The position numbers were made by a program, and so were the translations under genes. DNA of 64,000 nucleotides from IMG/VR virus record IMGVR_UViG_3300005673_000003, positions 84,729 to 148,728 of that record; one strand, given 5' to 3'. Of this stretch, positions 35,006-45,523 are shown in pieces. The DNA is from a virus. The notes under the pieces are model-generated. The model was not told the origin of the DNA. It did not search any database and was given only the letters and a program-made list of their open reading frames with translations. Every line of letters begins with the position of its first letter. Position 1 is the stretch's first letter.

Positions 35006-35773
35006 ATGATTACCGTTACCAATAACTACCCCAAGGATCTGAAAGCCGCTATCGCTCATGAATTGTTCACCCCCAACGCTAAGCCTAAGAAAGCCGATCT
35101 AATTGCGGCTATCGAAGATTACAACGCTAAGCAATTAGAGGGTAGAGATGCCATCTCTACCGAGCCTGAAGCCGTTGCAGTTGCCAGCGAAGCGACTGAG
35201 CAAGTAACCGAGCTTGCCATCCCTGCAGTTATCGATCAGAATTTGAAAAAGGTGCTGGAACCCGATGTTCTTGAGTCTACCGAATCTGAAAAGCAATTAA
35301 ATGATGAAATGGCTGCGTTCTTGAACAAGAAGCATGAAGAAGCTTATGGGGATGCAAAGCCAAAAGCAAAGGCTAAAAAGAGTGCTCCCAAAAAAGAATG
35401 GAGTACTCAGGATGATGAAATTCTAAGAAAGGCTTGCGAAGCTGGCAAAGCAGATAGATTTAATCGGGCAAAATTTATCCTTGAATTAGTAGAAAGAGGT
35501 CAATCGATTAAAGAGATCGCATCAAGAATGGGTTTATCTACGAGTAAGGTTCAGCGTGAATCTAAAGCAATGCAAGTCTACAATCTAAGCCAGATCGTCA
35601 AGCAACTCTACGCAGATCAACAGTTATCCTGGGCAGCAATTCATGATGAGCTTGCGATTAAATCCATCAAAGATACAAGCGTCGAGCAGTTTGATAAATT
35701 AGCCGCTGAAGTAGCAGGACGCAGGAAGCGTAAATCTAAACTAAATCAATCTAATGAGATTCAATCTGCCTAG
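35006..35773 (+). CDS. putative DNA-binding protein (Rho-N/HEH-like N-terminus, C-terminal HTH)
   Basis: KKADLIAAIE; GQSIKEIASRMGLSTSKVQR; GGAG RBS before ATG 35006. Confidence 0.6.
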   Translation: MITVTNNYPKDLKAAIAHELFTPNAKPKKADLIAAIEDYNAKQLEGRDAISTEPEAVAVASEATEQVTELAIPAVIDQNLKKVLEPDVLESTESEKQLNDEMAAFLNKKHEEAYGDAKPKAKAKKSAPKKEWSTQDDEILRKACEAGKADRFNRAKFILELVERGQSIKEIASRMGLSTSKVQRESKAMQVYNLSQIVKQLYADQQLSWAAIHDELAIKSIKDTSVEQFDKLAAEVAGRRKRKSKLNQSNEIQSA

Positions 35774-36170
35774 TTAGATACTGTAGCCGCTTGCCAATAG
35801 ATAATCCGATCATGGGATCAATGATCGGATTATCTACATACTTTCTGAAGGATAGATACCTTGAGCCAGCTAAAACAAGCAGTGCTGCATCCTGATTGAA
35901 TTGCTCAAAGATTTGTCCTCCTACATGAAAAGCCCATTTATCCAGTTCATTTTTCGAGAAATCATTTAGCGTCAGATTGTACGGCTGAACCAGTTGGCTG
36001 GAATGAATTAAGTAATATTTGGCCGATAAAATGTAAATCGGCAGACCAAGTTTTTCTGCATATCCTCTTGATTTAATAAATAAGCTGGATTTGTACAAAT
36101 CGATCGCGGGTTCAGGTTTATTTGATTTTTGTTTGACGCATGAGATTAAACATGCTTGCGGCTGACTCAT
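35751..36170 (-). CDS. DUF6884 family protein
   Basis: LISCVKQK...AIDLYKSSLF...ILSAKY...PYNLTL...LAG...GLSIGKRL. Confidence 0.75.
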   Translation of the reverse strand: MSQPQACLISCVKQKSNKPEPAIDLYKSSLFIKSRGYAEKLGLPIYILSAKYYLIHSSQLVQPYNLTLNDFSKNELDKWAFHVGGQIFEQFNQDAALLVLAGSRYLSFRKYVDNPIIDPMIGLSIGKRLQYLTRQIESH

Positions 36171-36185
36171 AAGTAACGACTCCAG

Positions 36186-37010
36186 TTAATTTCCACGAGG
36201 ATACCCGATAAACTCTTTGGCTATCCTCGCAATGACCTGACCCCATGCGATCGCTGGATTCTCGTCAAGCTCCCCCTCTTGCTGCACCAGCTCGTAAGCT
36301 TGCTTGATTAACTCCATATCCTCATGAGACGCTTTGAAGAATACCGATACATGATCACCAGACTCTTCAAAGCGCTCCCCATGCTGGCCTTGCTGCCCCT
36401 GAAAGGTGCTTTGGATGCCGCTCCCCTGAGAACCCCCAGAAGCGTACTGCTCTCCTCCTCCCCCTGCCGCCGCTGTCGCTTCATTGCGGCGTTGCTGATT
36501 CGCCTGGTGGTCGCTGTAAGCATCCTGGAAGGAGCCGCTACTGCCGTAATTATCCCAATCCGCTTCTGATAGCTTGATCAGCTCGTTTAGCTCATTCTCG
36601 GTGTAGGGTACCGCCTTAATCGTATCCACTCCCATATCTTGCTGAATATCGGCCAGCAGCTTTGCTAGGTCGATTTTATCCATCTCGCCTCGGGTGCTGT
36701 CCAGCACTACCGTCAGCTTCTTTGCTTCAGCGTCGGATAAGTCGTGGATGATATTGACGTAAATCACCTCCTCATCCTGCATCTCCTTCCAGCGATGCTC
36801 CCCATTAATGATCTGATATACCTCCTGTTTTTCGGGGTGGGGCCGCACCAGGATTTCCTCTACCTGCCCAACCCAATCCAGCGACTCTCGTAGAGCCTCC
36901 TGGGTGCGCTCTTTCATTCGATTGGGATTCCAATCATTCGGCTCCAATTGACTGGGATGCAACGGAACCGCTCTCTCGATTTTGTACAAAGATGACAACA
37001 TGATTTCCAC
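36186..37010 (-). CDS. ParB/Srx-like N-terminal domain protein
   Basis: LEPNDWNPN, ILVRP, IINGEHRW. Confidence 0.8.
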   Translation of the reverse strand: MEIMLSSLYKIERAVPLHPSQLEPNDWNPNRMKERTQEALRESLDWVGQVEEILVRPHPEKQEVYQIINGEHRWKEMQDEEVIYVNIIHDLSDAEAKKLTVVLDSTRGEMDKIDLAKLLADIQQDMGVDTIKAVPYTENELNELIKLSEADWDNYGSSGSFQDAYSDHQANQQRRNEATAAAGGGGEQYASGGSQGSGIQSTFQGQQGQHGERFEESGDHVSVFFKASHEDMELIKQAYELVQQEGELDENPAIAWGQVIARIAKEFIGYPRGN

Positions 37011-37057: not shown

Positions 37058-38191
37058 TTACCAGCTAATGCCTCTAGCTGCCCACAGCTTAGTAGATTCT
37101 TCCTCAAGCTTTTTATATTTGCGGATAGCGGCTCGAAGTACATGAATGTTTGCGGCCATAGCCGCATCAGATTCTTTGTAGCGAGGAATATTTTTTATCC
37201 CGGCAACATCTCCACCACCAAACCGAAGGCTAGAAACCCAGCTACTTGAATCAGAGGAATAGCAAGGGTAACGCTTGAGCACCCATTCAGTAGTTACGCC
37301 TAACAAGTGAATCTTAGGCATCTTGCCAGTCTTCTTGTAATAACTCATGACGATATGGAAGCAGCTATCTAGCCAAGCCTGTAGCAACTTCTTATTCCTC
37401 GTATAGGGCACCAGTCCGCCTAATGCGACGTAATCGTAGCCGCTAAGGGTATGGTGGAGATGCCGCAGATCTACCCCGAAAGTGACAATAGGGAGCGGCC
37501 TCATTCCCAGGCTTTCTAGAATCGATTGATTATTCCAACTGGCATCTTGATCTCCAATTACGTCGAGATTCATAAAATGGAGCGCTGCCATCTTACTTCT
37601 CCGGCGCTTATCGAAATCAAGCGCCCATTCCGCATACTCTTGCGGCGTTATGGTTTTTCCGGTTGACCATGCAGTGAACGCGCCAGAGTCGATGATCACC
37701 CTCGGTCTAAGGTCAACAAGGTTGCTGATAGCAGCGATCGTATCGGTTACTTCCTTTCGGTCGGCATAGGTTGCTAAATGATTGTCATGCTCTGGCTTGA
37801 TTTGCTTTTCCATCTCTTTTTCCATCTCTGGAGTGGCAGAATGCCCAGCGATATGGATATTCATGGGAGTATGCCATGAATCACGCCATTGCTCCTCTTG
37901 CTCTTGGTAGGCATAGCTAAATAAATTTTCTGTCTTTCCCTCTTCTGGAAGCAGTTCCTTAACCGATCTCTGGCCGCTCAATCTTGCTATTGTATCTGTA
38001 AGGTGAATTCGCATTGCTTTCTGGTGTAACCTTGCTAATTCATTCCATAGCTCTGCCCATTTCTTCTCATAGCCTGCATGGGCAAAGCTGAGCAAAGATC
38101 CGGTTGCAAGCTCCTCAGCAAGAAGGACTCTGGAATTCCTGCCATCCGGCAATGTATCACTGGCTCCCGCCCATACAAAATGCACCTTCAT
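37058..38191 (-). CDS. DpdA/TGT-like deazaguanine DNA transglycosylase, paralogue 2, with triplicated N-terminal module
   Basis: IIDSGAFT, NLDVIGD, VALGGLV, HLLG, SSDSSSW; in the que cluster; start reassigned to MKVHF. Confidence 0.7.
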   Translation of the reverse strand: MKVHFVWAGASDTLPDGRNSRVLLAEELATGSLLSFAHAGYEKKWAELWNELARLHQKAMRIHLTDTIARLSGQRSVKELLPEEGKTENLFSYAYQEQEEQWRDSWHTPMNIHIAGHSATPEMEKEMEKQIKPEHDNHLATYADRKEVTDTIAAISNLVDLRPRVIIDSGAFTAWSTGKTITPQEYAEWALDFDKRRRSKMAALHFMNLDVIGDQDASWNNQSILESLGMRPLPIVTFGVDLRHLHHTLSGYDYVALGGLVPYTRNKKLLQAWLDSCFHIVMSYYKKTGKMPKIHLLGVTTEWVLKRYPCYSSDSSSWVSSLRFGGGDVAGIKNIPRYKESDAAMAANIHVLRAAIRKYKKLEEESTKLWAARGISW

Positions 38192-38198
38192 ACAGCGA

Positions 38199-39018
38199 TC
38201 ACCAGCTAATCCCCCTGCCTGCCCACAGCTTGGTTGCCTCCTCTTCCATCCGCTTATATTTGCGGATAGCCGCTCGAAGGACATGGATGTTTGCAGCCAG
38301 GGCAGCATCGCTTTCCTTGTACCTGGGAACCTGCTGAATCCCTGCAATATCACCGCGCCCAAACCGCAAGCTGGCAACCCATGAACTCGAATCAGAGGAG
38401 AAGCAGGGATAGCGTTTCATCGCCCAATCGCTGGTTATCCCCAGCAGATGCACCTTGGGCATTTTGCCAGTCTTGCGATATTGGGCCATGACAATTTGGA
38501 AGCAGTGATCTAGCCAAGCCTGTAGCAACTTCCGGTTGCCAGAATGGGGCACCAGTCCGCCCAGTGCGACGTAATCATAATTTTCAATCGCTCTTTGCAG
38601 ATGGATAATATCCGCGCCAAAAGTAATGATCGGGATGGGTCGCATCCCTAGCCCTTCTAAAATTGATTGATTAATCCATGAAGCATCTTGATCTCCAATC
38701 ACATCCAGGTTCATGAAGTGAAGCGAGTCCATCCGGTGCCGCCAGCGGCTATCAAAATCCTTTGCCCACTCAGCGTACTCTTTAGGGTCAACTGCCTTGC
38801 CAAGCGTGAATGCCGTGAACGCTCCAGAGTCAATGATTACTCTGGGTCTGATGCCTTGCTGTTGCAGGACGGGTTTGTAGGCTGGCTCCTCATTTTTGTA
38901 GGCATAGCTCATGTTTGTAGGCATAGCTCATGAGATGGTTCGAGGTTGATTCGAGTAAAAGGATTTGCTGCTGAATCCGGCTATTACCAGATGGATTCGC
39001 CGCGATATAGATATTCAT
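38199..39018 (-). pseudogene. DpdA/TGT-like paralogue 1, frameshifted near its 5' end by a 19-bp tandem duplication
   Basis: ATG 39018 overlaps the queC stop (TAATG); removing one repeat unit restores MNIYIAAN...NHLMSYAYKNEE...IIDSGAFT; the core ORF 38199-38924 is intact. Confidence 0.75.
38895..38932. repeat. perfect 19-bp tandem duplication
   Basis: TTTGTAGGCATAGCTCATG x2. Confidence 0.95.
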
Positions 39019-39728
39019 TAAGCGGTCACTGGCTGCAATTCCCGATGCTTCCAGATTGGGTCAGGAACGCCCGCCTCTTGGAAGCCTCTATCTCTTAGCA
39101 AGCAGGCCGCACATTTACCGCAACCCCCTTTAACGCCTTGATAGCAGGTATGAGTCAGCTTCATGATTGACTCAAATTTATCTCCCATCACCTCCATTGC
39201 TAGGTGGACTGATTGAGCCTTGGTGAGGCTCATTAACGGAGTTTCGATAATGAATTTCCCAGGCTCTCCAAAATTGGCAAGGCTTAAAGCATCCTGAAGC
39301 GCATCAATAAATACTCTGCGGCAATCTGGATAGCCAGAATAATCCGTCTCGCATACACCAGTAAACAATGTATCAATCCCTCGCACGATCGCTCGATTGG
39401 ATGCAATCGTAAGGAACAAAGCATTTCTGGATGGTACAAAGGTGCTGGCTATACCATCCGGTACATCCCCAGGAGCAGAATATTCTGGCACCTGATTATC
39501 AGAAACCAGCGGCGAGGTTCCTTTAAGCACTTTCCCCAGCTCGATAACTTCATGGGATTCAACGCCCATAATCTTGCCTATCTGCACTGCAGATTCAATC
39601 TCGATTGAATGCTTTTGGCCGTAATCGAATGTGACGCAGTGTACTTTATCGAAAACCTGCTTAGCAACCGCCAAACAGGTTGTAGAGTCCTGACCGCCGC
39701 TAAGAATAACCAAACATTGATTAGACAT
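39018..39728 (-). CDS. queC: 7-cyano-7-deazaguanine synthase
   Basis: SGGQDSTT, VPSRN, YPDCR, TCY...CGKCAAC. Confidence 0.97.
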   Translation of the reverse strand: MSNQCLVILSGGQDSTTCLAVAKQVFDKVHCVTFDYGQKHSIEIESAVQIGKIMGVESHEVIELGKVLKGTSPLVSDNQVPEYSAPGDVPDGIASTFVPSRNALFLTIASNRAIVRGIDTLFTGVCETDYSGYPDCRRVFIDALQDALSLANFGEPGKFIIETPLMSLTKAQSVHLAMEVMGDKFESIMKLTHTCYQGVKGGCGKCAACLLRDRGFQEAGVPDPIWKHRELQPVTA

Positions 39729-39903
39729 TATTCCTTCCTTGATAGGGTTTGCAGATTTCGTTCCAGACTCTCTCGTAAGCTATCTCGTACTCTCTGTAAG
39801 CAAAACTCATCAGGTAATTGGCCCATAACTCTTGAGTCATCACCTGTCCGGTAAAAATTGATTGATGACTGCGATCGTTAGGCTGGCTAAGGTGGATTTG
39901 CAT
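39721..39903 (-). CDS. stand-alone DpdA N-terminal-module protein
   Basis: MQIHL...NYLMSFAYREYE...W matches the N-terminal modules of the DpdA-like paralogues. Confidence 0.65.
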   Translation of the reverse strand: MQIHLSQPNDRSHQSIFTGQVMTQELWANYLMSFAYREYEIAYERVWNEICKPYQGRNNV

Positions 39904-39914
39904 ACTGCTATCGA

Positions 39915-40099
39915 CTAAGGATTACGAGTGTTTTCGATATGGCTGATTAGAGCTTCCCAGTACTGTTTCCATCGGTGTTCATGCTCTCGAAATGCGTAGG
40001 ACATTAAACTATTGCAGTAGAGTTCATCTGCCAAAAGAACCCTGAAGTCCTTACCGTCTGGCCTGTTATCCCCCCCGATTTAGCTAGATGAATTCTCAT
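39915..40099 (-). pseudogene. stand-alone DpdA N-terminal module, frameshifted at a G7 tract
   Basis: ATG overlaps the folE stop (ATGA); with G8 it reads [51 protein letters not shown]... Confidence 0.65.
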
Positions 40100-41763
40100 C
40101 TCATCAACTCCAGTACTTCTGCTCTAGCGCTTGCATCCTTCCGAAACACCCCACGCATACAGCTTGTAACCGTCTCCGAACCAGGCTTAAGCACTCCGCG
40201 AGTGGTCATGCAAGTATGGGCAGCCTTGAGAATTACAGCTACTCCAGACGGGTTAAGGATGCGCTCAATGGCATCTGCTAACTGGTCAGTCAATCGCTCT
40301 TGCAATTGAGGTCGAGCGGCTAAAATATCCAGGCAGCGAGGAATCTTGGATAGCCCAACTACCTTTCCTGATGGGATGTAAGCTACATGAGCAACACCGT
40401 AGAAGGGAAGCAAATGATGCTCACAATTATGGGTTAGTATCCCGCAAACCAGGAAAGTCGGATGCTCATCACACTGAAAGCTATAAACCTTTATCGGCTT
40501 ATCAATTGTTTCGACGGATGCTACCGGAATAAATTCGCTTTCTCCCAGATCTAGGGTATGCTCAATCTGCTCAAACCCATGCTTGTTAAACCATCCCCGT
40601 CTATCCCATCCCATCCCGATATACATTGCGAAGCATCCAGCACCGTTATTTACGGGATAAGGCTTTGAGCCAACTGCATCTCCAAGTTCATCTAAGAAGC
40701 CCTTATTTGTGCTTACGATGATTTGAGCAACCCCCTTCTTAAGCTGCTTTTGTGAACCATCTCCATCGGTGTATCCCTCAAGAAATCCATCCATAATGGA
40801 TTGATCTGTCAGTACGATTTTTGGCAATCGAAATATTTTCGTCTTTGATTTGCTGCCCAGATTAAACGGAAGCCCAAGCTGCTTTAGTAGGCGTTTCGCA
40901 ATTTGGCTTGACGTGAATCTAACTCGGAATTGATCTACATCCTCCTTCCTGAATCCGCTACGCTTCTTAATTTTTTGTATGGGCACCTGAACTCCAAATG
41001 CTCCCACTAATGCTTTTTGAAACTTCTCAGCAAACCATTCATCGCAAACCTCCAGGCATACTCGCCTAGCATCCTGGATCGAACCATCAGAAGCGATCGC
41101 GCCAAGCACGTATCCCAGATCCCTATTCAGATTAAAGGCAAATTGCTCTTTACATAAAGTTCTGGGATTAATCCATTCGATAAGCTCTCCCGGATTAAGT
41201 TTGCCAGCTTCCTGCCAGCCGTACGGGGTTTTAATTGGATGATCTGGAGTAACCCCTATCTCGATGCCGTTGATAAGCTTTAATCGGGTTATCGAAGGAG
41301 CTTCATGAGAGGTGACGGATTTAACCGTAGTCTGCACTGGAATTCCATGCTGAAGAGTCCATAGCCTATCTCCAGCTTTAATACTCCTTGCTTTTCTTGC
41401 CCCGCCAACCGCATTTACCAATTGATAGCCTGGTAAACATAAGCTGAAAAACTGAATATCCCGAATCAGTACTATCTCATCATGGGTGCATTCAAAGGTT
41501 TTTACGAGTGGCAGCAATGGGTCTTCATGCAATCCAGCCGTAATCGTCGCCCAATGCTTTGCAACCCTGGCAGGAGTATCTCGCATCCCATCGCCGTCAA
41601 GCTTAGCTCCCCACAATAAACGCATTGCCGAGGATAGATGTGTTTCCACCTGAGCGAGTGTAGAGGCATCGACTGGTGCAGGTTTCGTTGATCTGGACTG
41701 CAAGCAATCCTCTAAGTCCAGATTCTGAAAGTCGCTCGAAAAGCCATTCTGCGATCGCTTCAC
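40096..41763 (-). CDS. folE: GTP cyclohydrolase I with intein (true start uncertain, overlaps queD)
   Basis: RDTPARV, FSL|[30 protein letters not shown]. Confidence 0.9.
40426..41439 (-). mobile_element. intein with LAGLIDADG homing endonuclease (338 aa)
   Basis: starts CLPG, block [16 protein letters not shown] and [11 protein letters not shown], ends THN before C+1. Confidence 0.92.
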
Positions 41764-42031
41764 TCGTCGGATTCTCCATCTCTAATGTGTCGTTAAGATG
41801 CCAATGATCTAAAAATTGATTGATTAACGGATTGAGCGCTGCTTTGATTTCCGAATAATCCATCACCATACCCTGCTTAGGCCCAGCGGTTTGCAGTGCA
41901 TCCCCTTGGACGTAAATAATCCCTTTCCAGCTATGACCATGCAATCGGGCACACTTGCCATCATGGTTGGGCAGAAAATGAGATGCTTCAAAGGAAAACT
42001 CCTTTCCTAGAATCCATTTAGGTTGCATCAC
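41603..42031 (-). CDS. queD: 6-carboxytetrahydropterin synthase
   Basis: [17 protein letters not shown]...LND, NPTSE, ET. Confidence 0.95.
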
Positions 42032-42639
42032 CGCACTCCTATGTATTTGTGCATTTGAAGAGAAAGGCGGTAGCCAGGATTAGAGCGCAAGAGGTAAAGG
42101 CAGATTGGCAGCGTGCGCTCCCGGTCATCCCACTCCGACTGCAGGAAGACTGGCACCATTGGATCTTCTGGTAGCCACTTCCGATAGAATGCCAGCTCGT
42201 CGCCTGACGAAATGACGATTTTAATCTCGCTGGCATTTACCCAGAATTCGGGCTGCACCGGATACTTAGGATTCAGATGCTGTTTAGGGCTAAGTGTTAT
42301 CCATACCCCTGTAGGCAGCTTCTGCCATGCCGCTCCACTGGTTTCGATATGAACCGTTTTATTAGCGGCGTGCAGCGCTGCAACCAGCTCTGGTAGATTG
42401 CGCTGAATAAATGGCTCCCCACCCGTAATCACCACCCTGGAAGACTTTAATCTCCCAATCAAATCACTAATCTCTTGCTCTGATTGAGGTAAAAATTTGC
42501 CACCATCAGAGTAGCCGGTATCACACCATCGGCAACCAACCGGGCATCCATACAGCCTGATAAAGTCACATGGCGTGCCTGCCCAGTAGCCTTCCCCTTG
42601 GATTGTTTGCTGAAAATCTTCCTGGACTCGGATTCTCAC
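42028..42639 (-). CDS. queE: 7-carboxy-7-deazaguanine synthase (radical SAM)
   Basis: TIQGEG, FIRLYGCPVGCRWCDT, TGGEP, IETSG, LSPK, SLQMHK; GTG start at 42639. Confidence 0.93.
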   Translation of the reverse strand: MRIRVQEDFQQTIQGEGYWAGTPCDFIRLYGCPVGCRWCDTGYSDGGKFLPQSEQEISDLIGRLKSSRVVITGGEPFIQRNLPELVAALHAANKTVHIETSGAAWQKLPTGVWITLSPKQHLNPKYPVQPEFWVNASEIKIVISSGDELAFYRKWLPEDPMVPVFLQSEWDDRERTLPICLYLLRSNPGYRLSLQMHKYIGVR

Positions 42640-42730
42640 GGAAATGGGTGGGTTCGGGAGGGGTGAAGCCCCTGGCTTCAGACATGGGGAGGTAATAGCC
42701 CCTCCCGCGCCTGCGGTAGCAGGCAGAGTC

Positions 42731-44008
42731 TCAAAATCCATACGAATAACCGTCCTTCTTGTGGATTGGTTTGCAATATTTGTGGCTGATACCTGCCACC
42801 CTTCCGGCAGTGGTGTTGATATCGAAACTGCCTGATGCACGACAAAGAACTCGACCCACATAAGAGCCGATTTTCTTACCTGCTGTAACAGTTGCGGTAA
42901 CGATATCGCCTGTTTGAAAGCCTTTGTGAATCTGGACTCTGGATTTATGGCGAGTGGGAAAGCCGTACTTATCCGTTCCACACATCTGCCGACTTCCATG
43001 CCCTTTTGCCGCAATCAGCAACGGCTTTGAAGCGAGAACTTTCAACGTTCCAACATTGCCAACACACGCCGCATCAAACCAATGAGATTTAGGCAGATTT
43101 AACCGAGTGCGATTGAACTTGGTTTGTCCACCTGTCCCCGTGGTTACTGGCAAACCCGTTATCTTCAGAGCGTTGAACAATGCCCATCGGGTAGAGTTGA
43201 CCGCAGCCGCATCTTTAAGCGGTGATTTTGCCTGTTTGAGAATTCGACTCAGCAAATCAGGCTTATCCGCTAGAAAGTCTCGAATATCCTGATTCCCCTT
43301 GCTCTGATTGCAAGGATGACAAGCAAGAGCAAGATTAGAAACTCGGTCAGAACCACCCTTTGATTTCGGTTGGATATGTTCAATCTCAAGCGAAACATTT
43401 TCGACTGAGCAGTACGCGCACTTTCGATTCCACTTCTCCAGCAAATATTCTCGAACTTCGTAGCCTTGCAATTCTCCTTGCTGATACTCAACGCCTGAGA
43501 TTTCAGGATTTGAAATTAACTGCACATCGAACCGCACCAATTCTTGAGCGATGCTTGCGATCGGTGCAAGTCGCATAAACTTGCGAACCCAAGTGAGCGT
43601 TGTTAAAACGCGATGCTGCAATGACGGAGCAAGCCATCCATCAGGACGAGTGCGATTCAAGAATCGAGCCTTGCGATAGCGAGTTTTGCGATTCCGTCTA
43701 GAGCGTCGCAATTGACGACGGGATAGCAACGCATCCTTAATCTGTTGCCCTCGGTGTTGCAATTCGGCTCCAAAGATGAGTTTGTTGCCTTGCTTGATTG
43801 CGATTCCCGTGACTTTAGAGCCGGGATCTAGTTTGAGTTCCAAGTCTTGTACGGGCACATCGGGACAAGCTTCTTTCAGGATGATGGTGAATGGATATTT
43901 TCTGAACACAGCAGCTTTTCCTGCATTAAGGAGGTGACGTGCCGCTCCAGGGTGAACTGGGTCTAGCGGTCGTTTGTTGGTATCCAGCACAAAAACGAAA
44001 TTCGACAT
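42731..44008 (-). CDS. iscB: RNA-guided endonuclease IscB
   Basis: VFVLD...PLDP, LDPGS, RRQLRRSRR, ELVRFD, HNH CAYC...EHIQPKSKGG...NL...C..CN, HWFDAAC. Confidence 0.95.
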   Translation of the reverse strand: MSNFVFVLDTNKRPLDPVHPGAARHLLNAGKAAVFRKYPFTIILKEACPDVPVQDLELKLDPGSKVTGIAIKQGNKLIFGAELQHRGQQIKDALLSRRQLRRSRRNRKTRYRKARFLNRTRPDGWLAPSLQHRVLTTLTWVRKFMRLAPIASIAQELVRFDVQLISNPEISGVEYQQGELQGYEVREYLLEKWNRKCAYCSVENVSLEIEHIQPKSKGGSDRVSNLALACHPCNQSKGNQDIRDFLADKPDLLSRILKQAKSPLKDAAAVNSTRWALFNALKITGLPVTTGTGGQTKFNRTRLNLPKSHWFDAACVGNVGTLKVLASKPLLIAAKGHGSRQMCGTDKYGFPTRHKSRVQIHKGFQTGDIVTATVTAGKKIGSYVGRVLCRASGSFDINTTAGRVAGISHKYCKPIHKKDGYSYGF

Positions 44009-44263
44009 TTGAGAAACTCCATTTCTGGGTAATGTTCGCTTCGCCAATGTTTTAAGAGCTTGTTCGGCTAGTTGCACTTCCTTAACCCACTACAGATGTT
44101 TAGCAACTAGCGACAGAGCCAAGAACTAGCGACGTATCCTTGGGTGTCATGACTCGAAAAACGTAGTCCTCGAAGGACTTAGGCTGGTCATGTTGTGGCT
44201 CGTATCCCGCTCGAAGAGTCGGGCAGTCTACAAGCCCCTGCCTTTAGGCATGGGGTTCATGAC
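44009..44263 (-). ncRNA. omegaRNA scaffold of IscB
   Basis: ~255-nt non-coding region between the element end and iscB, with typical GACCAGCCTAAG, CTACGTT and CATTGGCGAAG segments. Confidence 0.75.
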
Positions 44264-44456: not shown

Positions 44457-45305
44457 TCAAATAGCTTTTAGATCGAACAAGGATAATTGCGGGATGCGAT
44501 CGCGAGCCTCAGGGGATACCCAAAGATATTCGCATTCCTTGCCAATCCGCTTACTAATGACTATCCAGCCATCCGGCTTATGCTTTTCGTAAAGCTCGGA
44601 AGTGTAGCCGCTGACGATAGCAGATCTCCCTTGAAGCATCTCCAGTGCCAATACATGCTCCTTGTCCGAAAATTCGCAAGCATACTGCCTGCGAGATGCC
44701 GTTTTCTGCGGATTTTTAGCCCGATTATCTTTCGATTTTCGAGCTTCCTGGACGTAGGGAGGATCCAGGTAATAGAGGATGCTGGGGTCTTTTGGCATCG
44801 CTTTTAGCACATCAAAGCATGATTCCTGGCGAATGCTGACACACCGAAGGCGATCGCTGCAGGCCCATAAATGGAATGGATTCGCTTCCTCCCTGGTAGC
44901 ACTCCCCCTGCCACTACTCCACCGAGTTCCTCCACCACTCCAGGATAGATGGCTATAGCAATAGAATTGAGCAGCCAGCTCGATACCATCAAGACCTTCT
45001 TCCTGATGGACTGCTAGCGGATCTCGCAGAAGGAATACATCATCCTCTTCATCTAGAAACCTGTAAATCGCTTCTATCAGCTCTGCTGGGTTGCCTTTAA
45101 GCACTTGCATGAAATTGCAAGCTGGCTGATAAATATCGCAGTAAATCTCTGTAGGGGCAGGATTCTTCGCGAATAGCATTGCACCAGAGCCGCCGCATAA
45201 ATCAACATACTGTTGATGCGGCGGAAATGAGCCTAAAATCCATTCGGCCCACTTCCACTTTGCTCCAAAGTACGGGATTGCTGGCTTGAGAATCCTGCCT
45301 ACCAT
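44457..45305 (-). CDS. Dam-like (D12 class) N6-adenine DNA methyltransferase
   Basis: PYFGAK, DLCGGSG, YLDPPY, VSGY. Confidence 0.85.
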   Translation of the reverse strand: MVGRILKPAIPYFGAKWKWAEWILGSFPPHQQYVDLCGGSGAMLFAKNPAPTEIYCDIYQPACNFMQVLKGNPAELIEAIYRFLDEEDDVFLLRDPLAVHQEEGLDGIELAAQFYCYSHLSWSGGGTRWSSGRGSATREEANPFHLWACSDRLRCVSIRQESCFDVLKAMPKDPSILYYLDPPYVQEARKSKDNRAKNPQKTASRRQYACEFSDKEHVLALEMLQGRSAIVSGYTSELYEKHKPDGWIVISKRIGKECEYLWVSPEARDRIPQLSLFDLKAI

Positions 45306-45523
45306 TGATAGCCCTTGCGAACTGCAATGTACTTCCAGCCGTCTTCTGTTTTCTGCCAAACCCGCATCCAGCGATCGCAAGCTGGGAGAGGGCAATCTTT
45401 ATAAAAAGAAAGGCGAACTTGCTGGCCCACTACTGCAAATTGATAGCTCTCGATCAACTCTTTTAAGTCCGCTCCAATCTGTTTAGGATCGGGAGTCGGA
45501 GCAAAGTTGCGACAATCGTACAT
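45299..45523 (-). CDS. small hypothetical protein
   Basis: GGAGG RBS and 12-mer motif upstream. Confidence 0.55.
   Translation of the reverse strand: MYDCRNFAPTPDPKQIGADLKELIESYQFAVVGQQVRLSFYKDCPLPACDRWMRVWQKTEDGWKYIAVRKGYQW

Follow-up and report, generated by a model that had tools for sequence, protein, structure and literature searches.

A conserved array of N-terminal units with candidate G/C-run switches on a predicted phage DpdA

Why should a phage enzyme for DNA modification be preceded by several copies of its own N-terminus? The question is raised by the final 64 kb (positions 84,729 to 148,728, hereafter the window) of the complete 148,728-bp virus record IMGVR_UViG_3300005673_000003, which has direct terminal repeats and belongs to a probable cyanophage. 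On the minus strand of the window, as in related loci, the genes for the synthesis of preQ0 (7-cyano-7-deazaguanine), namely folE, queD, queE and queC, adjoin dpdA, which is present here as two paralogues. A unit of about 50–60 amino acids (aa) had been noticed six times in this operon in an earlier reading of the sequence alone (the sequence-only reading): as two free units, A and B, as the N-terminus of dpdA-1, and as three tandem units of dpdA-2, each starting with Met and called here 2a, 2b and 2c (Table 1). All six were confirmed on the minus strand as real homologues. Judged from sequence comparison, they belong to an N-terminal array, on a phage enzyme for DNA modification, that is conserved, selected, modular and apparently phase-variable.

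The repeated unit as the first quarter of the DpdA barrel

By profile and structure model, the dpdA-2 product is a phage-type DpdA, predicted to exchange guanine for a 7-deazaguanine in DNA. Unit 2c together with the core matches phrog_887 across residues 1–248 (E 3.2e-35), a family labelled “queuine tRNA-ribosyltransferase”, meaning phage DpdA, and tblastn matches were obtained in 226 phage records, with the phage DpdAs aligning from residue 1–2 of 2c plus core. The AlphaFold model, with a predicted local distance difference test score (pLDDT) of 86, superposes on archaeal, bacterial and human tRNA-guanine transglycosylase (TGT) at Z 17–18 (VIA-align) and on the bacterial DpdA 7UI4 at Z 17.4 with a root-mean-square deviation of 3.2 over 241 aligned residues, all superpositions starting at model residue 1. 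Because both the sequence alignments and the fold superpositions begin at residue 1 or 2, the unit is best described as the segment β1-α1-β2-α2, that is, as the ordinary N-terminus predicted for a phage-type DpdA, and the core as opening with β3, the strand with the D-S-G-A-F motif. This agrees with the sequence-only reading, in which the unit was taken for the first β/α part of the barrel. D168 of the D-S-G-A-F motif and D314 are invariant among 100 homologues and presumably correspond to Asp102 and Asp280 of TGT. In the Salmonella DpdA, the active site lies between the β2/α2 and β3/α3 insertions, which may have a part in sequence-specific recognition; the β1/α1 insertion is also located on the wide, active-site face (PMC10164549).

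Assignment to the bacterial DpdA equivalog NF041059 (NCBIfam) was rejected, as the scores reached 13–14 bits against a cut-off of 200 bits. No match was found in Pfam for either DpdA paralogue or the units, in PADLOC for DpdA or the units, or in a PDB sequence search with the family profile. A blastn search against cultured phages returned short queC matches only, and the cultured phages of the searched collection included no close DpdA relative, the best having 32% identity.

In shuffle tests, units A, B, 2a and 2b are similar to each other with z-scores of 6–21 (20.7 for A and 2a), and the dpdA-1 unit links to 2c (z 9.4) as well as to A, B and 2b (z 6.8–7.5); the direct tests of 2c against A, B or 2a gave no significance (z <2). 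The sequence-only reading had made its proposal depend on a significant profile alignment of the units, and such an alignment was obtained between the profiles of the free and the core-proximal units (hhalign P 3e-4), with both β1 and β2 aligned.

A search with dpdA-2 resulted in 202 homologues, mostly metagenomic with some cyanobacterial ones (Chlorogloeopsis PCC 6912, Dolichospermum), and a later match was labelled as an uncultured cyanophage. When a hidden Markov model was built from the six window units alone, as the sequence-only reading had suggested, it detected 280 unit copies in 117 of 120 homologues from cyanobacteria and uncultured phages. Three of these 120 proteins have no unit, 23 have one, 43 two, 26 three, 21 four and four have five; this spread from one to five, with no preferred totals, does not suggest that A, B, 2a and 2b form a separate full barrel. 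Across the clade, in the preQ0/DpdA clusters of cyanobacteria and cyanophages, the copies of the apparent first quarter stand either in tandem, one to five of them before one core, or as mini-genes before queC. A cultured host-side example is P0034 of Chlorogloeopsis fritschii PCC 6912 with three units.

Several conserved unit types, named here alpha, beta, gamma, delta and A-like, occur in an order that is shuffled between homologues; in the window, dpdA-1 carries a gamma-type unit, and dpdA-2 carries A-like, beta-type and delta-type units. The alpha, beta, gamma and A-like types are mostly distal, yet in some homologues they are core-proximal or the sole unit, so each of them can be a genuine barrel N-terminus. 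Constraint on unit 2b equals that on the core, the proportion of nonsynonymous differences (pN) against the locus L095 being 0.21 and 0.19, respectively. Only 21 representatives were recovered when 1.84 billion proteins were searched exhaustively with the unit profile, which means that the unit profile does not reach beyond this clade. Two tandem Met-started units were also recognised by eye in a distant marine DpdA lineage (L033, L035, L037, L039 and L045; about 30–36% identity; D-S-G-G-F-S motif), and hence unit duplication from the start codon occurred in more than one DpdA clade.

Some homologues are of unusual composition. P0077 and P0090 share the units and the C-terminal part with the family, while the middle of their core is quite different (alignment columns 301–400), and they look like mosaic, recombinant DpdA barrels. 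No recognisable core is in frame in P0143 (218 aa), where four units are followed by a frameshifted core start, or in P0147 (217 aa), where three units are followed by unrelated sequence. The closest relative, L095 (71% identity; region L095:938–3590), has two dpdA genes with a queF-like open reading frame (ORF) between them, which suggests preQ1-type chemistry; its first dpdA includes a partial duplication of β1, and one of its alpha-type units is broken twice, at a T6 run and at a G7 run.

Selection, start codons and G/C runs in the units

The stand-alone copies anticipated by the sequence-only reading do exist: proteins of 44–81 aa consisting of a single unit form 22 clusters in a collection of 5.8 billion proteins. 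The free units comprise four orthologous groups, each with in-frame orthologues, such as P0138 and P0139 (61 aa) for unit A and P0130 and P0132 for unit B; the P0138 contigs that were read (e.g. L180) carry G8 at the position of the G7 run of the window. The ratio of nonsynonymous to synonymous substitution rates (dN/dS) is 0.02–0.09 downstream of the run, also in out-of-frame contigs, and is still low without the codons overlapping queC. By these measures the free units between folE/queD and queC are a real gene family under strong purifying selection.

Remnants of neighbouring genes are found in the arrays. The 3′ end of unit A (39915–39960, minus strand) retains a decayed 5′ coding end of queC in another frame, a junction in L010 (L010:5029–5150) joins a 5′ piece of queC to a 3′ piece of folE, and a fossil 3′ end of queC precedes the second dpdA in L095. 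Such fossils indicate that the arrays grew by tandem segmental duplication.

A start codon is kept at nearly every unit. Of 71 distinct units read from the DNA of 173 loci, 48 start with ATG, 15 with GTG, six with TTG and two with another codon, in both of which cases ATG is the preceding codon; the background in the same genes is 23% GTG among Val codons and 14% TTG among Leu codons. At the protein level, the first residue is M, V or L in 168 of 169 internal units and is never I, the residue that mostly occupies position 3 of β1. Selection acting on the protein does not account for GTG and TTG being preferred; the initiation of translation at each unit appears to be, or recently to have been, under selection. 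The alternative starts postulated by the sequence-only reading are in this way strongly, if indirectly, supported by the ATG, GTG or TTG kept at internal units. Shine-Dalgarno-like motifs were detected upstream of 23 of the 44 internal starts (11 of 12 for GTG and TTG) against a background of 16.5%, an enrichment that is only suggestive because the motif overlaps conserved Trp-Asp/Glu codons; the window's own 2b and 2c starts are without such a motif.

The candidate switch element, which had escaped the sequence-only reading, is a clade-wide set of hypervariable G/C runs inside the units. In the free units of many lineages, runs of 6–10 nucleotides (nt), either poly-G or poly-C, lie in the β1-α1 loop, and in distal fused units they lie inside the unit or at its ends. 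Runs of at least 7 number 16 in 12.8 kb of unit DNA vs 8 in 251 kb of flanks, a 39-fold enrichment (P 5e-16), and the G7 run in unit A is the sole one of this length in the window. The same site varies from G7 to G10 in relatives. As the sequence-only reading had recognised, unit A is frameshifted: it is read in two frames around the run, and its 61-aa product requires G8 or a −1 shift at G7.

Polymorphism of run length was observed between closely related contigs. Across about 3.5 kb, L010 and L011 are the same except for G7/G8, C9/C8, C4/C3 and two single-nucleotide polymorphisms, and L005 has G10 at the run where L096 has G8. In one lineage recovered from six samples of one project, the run at the end of the first fused unit is C8 in four samples, C9 in one and C7 in one, and where the frame is shifted, the remainder of the enzyme starts from the GTG of the next unit; a further sample has a nonsense codon in the second unit, so that the ATG of the third remains as the start. 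Overall, 10 alleles in the assembled contigs are out-of-frame (OFF) and 7 are in-frame (ON). Run-length polymorphism combined with purifying selection is the signature of contingency loci and not of decay, and the G/C runs, judged from assembled contigs, bear this signature of phase variation. By sequence, individual copies are thus put in or out of frame by the runs and, in the window, also by a 19-nt duplication, which separates the dpdA-1 unit (42 aa) from its core ORF (241 aa); since it copies the β2 codons, both dpdA-1 products keep β2.

Possible roles of the supernumerary units

The reading that we tentatively prefer, and regard as plausible, takes the units for alternative first quarters of the barrel: nested starts and slippery runs would determine which of them are available, and subpopulations would come to differ in how strongly or in which context their DNA is modified. 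The array would yield population-variable forms of DpdA, namely isoforms of greater or lesser length that begin at nested starts and are accompanied or not by free units. Any unit could act as the first quarter and supply the β1/α1 and β2/α2 loops on the DNA-binding face, and unit switching would change the amount or the sequence context of the replacement of guanine by 7-deazaguanine. The outcome would be bet-hedging between restriction enzymes and modification-dependent defences. The layout is present in dozens of related phages and is probably a population-level switch on the disguise of their DNA.

In structure prediction, the outcome depended on the alignment. With a 100-sequence alignment, AlphaFold confidently placed the distal unit 2a in the barrel with 2b and 2c looped out. 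The sequence-only reading had also suggested modelling the units in complex with the core, and the complex of unit B with the core (residues 157–377) is weakly supported, with a median score of 0.55 (runs 0.21, 0.76 and 0.55) against 0.00 for the best control, agreement of at least 30% of contacts between the runs and a partner pLDDT of at least 34. Among solved complexes, 58 of 80 attain the mark used for such predictions, and so do 2 of 110 mismatched pairs; passes at scores of up to 0.60 include both of these mismatches and no more than 7 of the 80 solved complexes, and the pass of unit B may reflect its likeness to the cis arrangement.

Several observations weigh against alternative first quarters. 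The placement of 2a may only reflect how homologues with a single unit were matched to the 2a columns; when 22 three-unit proteins were aligned in register, the model was poor (pLDDT 65) and favoured no unit for the barrel. The delta-type unit is always core-adjacent (48 of 48), which fits a fixed barrel with appendages. No gene for a unit-less core was found among the homologues, and completion in trans is consequently not demonstrably needed. The run-length variation was seen between contigs, and switching within the population of this phage is presumptive. The OFF state of unit A and the broken dpdA-1 in this genome could also mean decay. No result so far places a distal or free unit in the barrel or ties a unit to altered modification. 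As for unit-less cores, two candidates were rejected, P0073 as a mis-called start with two in-frame units upstream and P0118 as cut by a contig end; a core lacking β1 arises only from the broken dpdA-1 of the window.

The main rival explanation, possible but somewhat unlikely, is that the barrel keeps its proximal unit and that the additional units work as accessory domains at the N-terminus or as small regulators, docking for example on a ParB-like partner, on DNA or on another DpdA molecule, with the runs turning them on or off. The invariable position of the delta-type unit is what this would predict, as are distal units that come out of the models with low confidence or looped out, and a candidate partner is encoded by the ParB_N-like gene, which in every related locus examined comes right behind dpdA or with the DUF6884 gene in between, the bacterial DpdA being known to need the ParB-like DpdB. 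Selection, start codons and switches would fit accessory modules equally well. What speaks for alternative first quarters instead is that the distal and free units keep the exact barrel motifs (β1 with its His, S-Y-A-Y in β2), that in other homologues units of these types stand alone or next to the core and, weakly, that unit B is predicted to dock on a unit-less core.

It is improbable that the free units act merely in cis, as phase-variable leader ORFs coupling the translation of queC, in which case the OFF state would lower preQ0 synthesis and modification and the peptide would matter little. The layout would suit such leaders, since unit A starts within the stop codon of folE (ATGA), free units in every locus end 8–26 nt inside queC in another frame, and OFF alleles stop about 30 codons in. 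A leader peptide of little importance, however, would hardly show conservation of its amino acids with the dN/dS values given above, also apart from the queC overlap, retain the DpdA motifs or recur in the same types fused to cores, and the tandem fused units would be left unexplained. The view of the copies as duplication debris and assembly noise, with homopolymer differences as sequencing errors, is very improbable and largely refuted: the fossil gene ends (queC 5′ after unit A, queC-5′/folE-3′ in L010, queC 3′ in L095), the OFF unit A, the broken dpdA-1 and the twice-broken L095 unit would be expected of it, but not purifying selection on free and distal units, start codons kept in about 99% of units, run enrichment confined to the units, run sites conserved as poly-G or poly-C across diverged lineages, in-frame orthologues for each group of free units or the two Met-started units of a distant marine lineage. 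Both leader ORFs and debris fit the selection data poorly.

The operon and its relation to known systems

The genes follow each other on the minus strand in the order queE, queD, folE with an intein, unit A, unit B, queC, dpdA-1, dpdA-2, ParB_N-like and DUF6884, and form a single tightly packed operon in which most genes begin within the end of the one before (ATGA for folE/unit A, 8 nt for unit B/queC, TAATG for queC/dpdA-1). A possible start of dpdA-2 at TTG 38377 was rejected in favour of ATG 38191.

Table 1 Features of the preQ0/dpdA operon in the window (positions are those of the window)
Feature	Position	Strand	Description	Evidence
DUF6884 protein	35751..36170	-		weak PADLOC DpdC match (E 3e-6); strong PDC-M57A match
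ParB_N-like protein	36186..37010	-	directly after dpdA-2	profile match and synteny
dpdA-2 catalytic core	37058..37711	-	β3–β8; D168 (D-S-G-A-F motif) and D314 invariant	
Unit 2c of dpdA-2	37712..37864	-	delta-type, core-adjacent; internal ATG start	
Unit 2b of dpdA-2	37865..38014	-	beta-type; internal ATG start	
Unit 2a of dpdA-2	38015..38191	-	A-type, nearest to free unit A; ATG 38191 is the gene start	
dpdA-1 core ORF	38199..38924	-	241 aa; 74% identical to the dpdA-2 core	PHROG 887, E 7e-34
19-nt tandem duplication	38895..38932	-	perfect; frameshifts dpdA-1	
dpdA-1 N-terminal unit	38890..39018	-	gamma-type; 42-aa ORF closed by frameshift; ATG overlaps queC stop (TAATG)	
queC	39018..39728	-	preQ0 synthase; placed between free units and dpdA here and in all related loci	Pfam QueC, E 9e-64; synteny
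Free unit B	39721..39903	-	B-type; intact, 60 aa; 3′ end overlaps queC start by 8 nt	
Free unit A	39915..40099	-	A-type; frame broken by G7 run, OFF allele	ORF reading, shuffle tests
G7 homopolymer	40070..40076	-	C7 on the plus strand; β1-α1 loop of unit A; candidate slipped-strand switch	
folE	40096..41763	-	GTP cyclohydrolase I, preQ0 step 1; LAGLIDADG intein inside	Pfam
queD	41603..42031	-		profile match
queE	42028..42640	-	radical SAM; start uncertain	profile match

The Pfam GTP_cyclohydroI match of folE consists of two stretches flanking an intein with a LAGLIDADG homing-endonuclease domain. Directly upstream of queE there is a gene for an IscB-like RRXRR and HNH protein of 448 aa (42731–44077, minus strand), and the start of queE is uncertain because this gene overlaps its long reading frame. 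The ParB_N-like protein is a possible DpdB-like partner, and by sequence the set of dpdA-2, ParB_N-like and DUF6884 genes resembles a phage version of dpdA-dpdB-dpdC. Given the ParB-like and DpdC-like neighbours, the final base could be dADG (2′-deoxy-7-amido-7-deazaguanosine) rather than dPreQ0 (2′-deoxy-7-cyano-7-deazaguanosine). A D12-class N6-adenine DNA methyltransferase is encoded near the deazaguanine cluster (44457–45395, minus strand), and DNA modification in this phage may therefore be of two kinds.

DpdA hypermodification is a main shield of phages against restriction and CRISPR, and what determines its motif and extent is poorly understood. A DNA-facing first quarter that is multiplied, individually startable and gated by runs would give a direct handle on both, and up to five conserved spare copies of a quarter-barrel make an unusual natural test bed for barrel modularity.

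Known phage DpdAs are the DNA guanine transglycosylases of phages with 7-deazaguanine-modified DNA, e.g. CAjan, iggy and 9g (PMC6884629, PMC7544227, PMC10484667). The window enzyme is like them in its family by profile (PHROG 887), in its neighbourhood of folE, queD, queE and queC, and in its short TGT-like barrel with D-S-G and a second invariant Asp. The described phage DpdAs align from residue 1–2 at about the length of an enzyme with one unit and appear to be single-unit, whereas the clade of the window has 1–5 unit repeats, internal starts, free unit genes and G/C-run switches. With the bacterial DpdA (Salmonella Montevideo, 7UI4; PMC10164549) the enzyme shares the TIM-barrel fold, as well as neighbours resembling DpdB and, weakly, DpdC, but by inspection it is without the large Ins8 and the CxCxxC...H zinc site; its context is that of phage counter-defence, whereas the bacterial Dpd system is a host defence island.

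Contingency loci in phages are already known or recently reported, for other genes. The polyG switches of Campylobacter phages (Sorensen et al. 2021) are said to concern host-recognition genes. A preprint on contingency loci of T2 and T4 never mentions DNA modification, methyltransferase or deazaguanine (bioRxiv 10.1101/2025.10.21.683753). Homopolymers in coding sequence, length polymorphism resulting in frameshifts and population heterogeneity are common to those loci and the present ones, while the runs in the clade of the window gate modules of a DNA hypermodification enzyme and are paired with nested starts, by which the part downstream is rescued. In the literature, no paper was found that connects 7-deazaguanine or DpdA with phase variation or with repeated N-terminal units, and this would be the first case found of a phase-variable 7-deazaguanine system in a phage. 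Phasevarions, Type I/III systems and the multispecific C5-methyltransferases of phages likewise have repeat-gated ON/OFF switching or module choice in a DNA-modifying enzyme, from which epigenetic heterogeneity arises; unlike these methyltransferases, DpdA exchanges a base instead of transferring a methyl group, and its variable module belongs to the catalytic barrel and is not a target-recognition domain of its own.

Assembly in trans is possible for fragments of a barrel, as in split or half TIM barrels such as the halves of HisF. In engineered alternate frame folding proteins, as is proposed for the arrays described here, a duplicated segment competes for one position in the fold (PMC12344692); these proteins and the HisF halves are laboratory constructs or ancient intermediates. 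That the system of the window is a natural enzyme of alternate frame folding or fragment exchange, in which one core would take any of several first quarters in cis or in trans and the G/C runs would decide their availability, giving subpopulations with different modification patterns or levels, seems unlikely to us; if it proved true, an enzyme from nature that can be switched genetically between up to five first quarters would be new.

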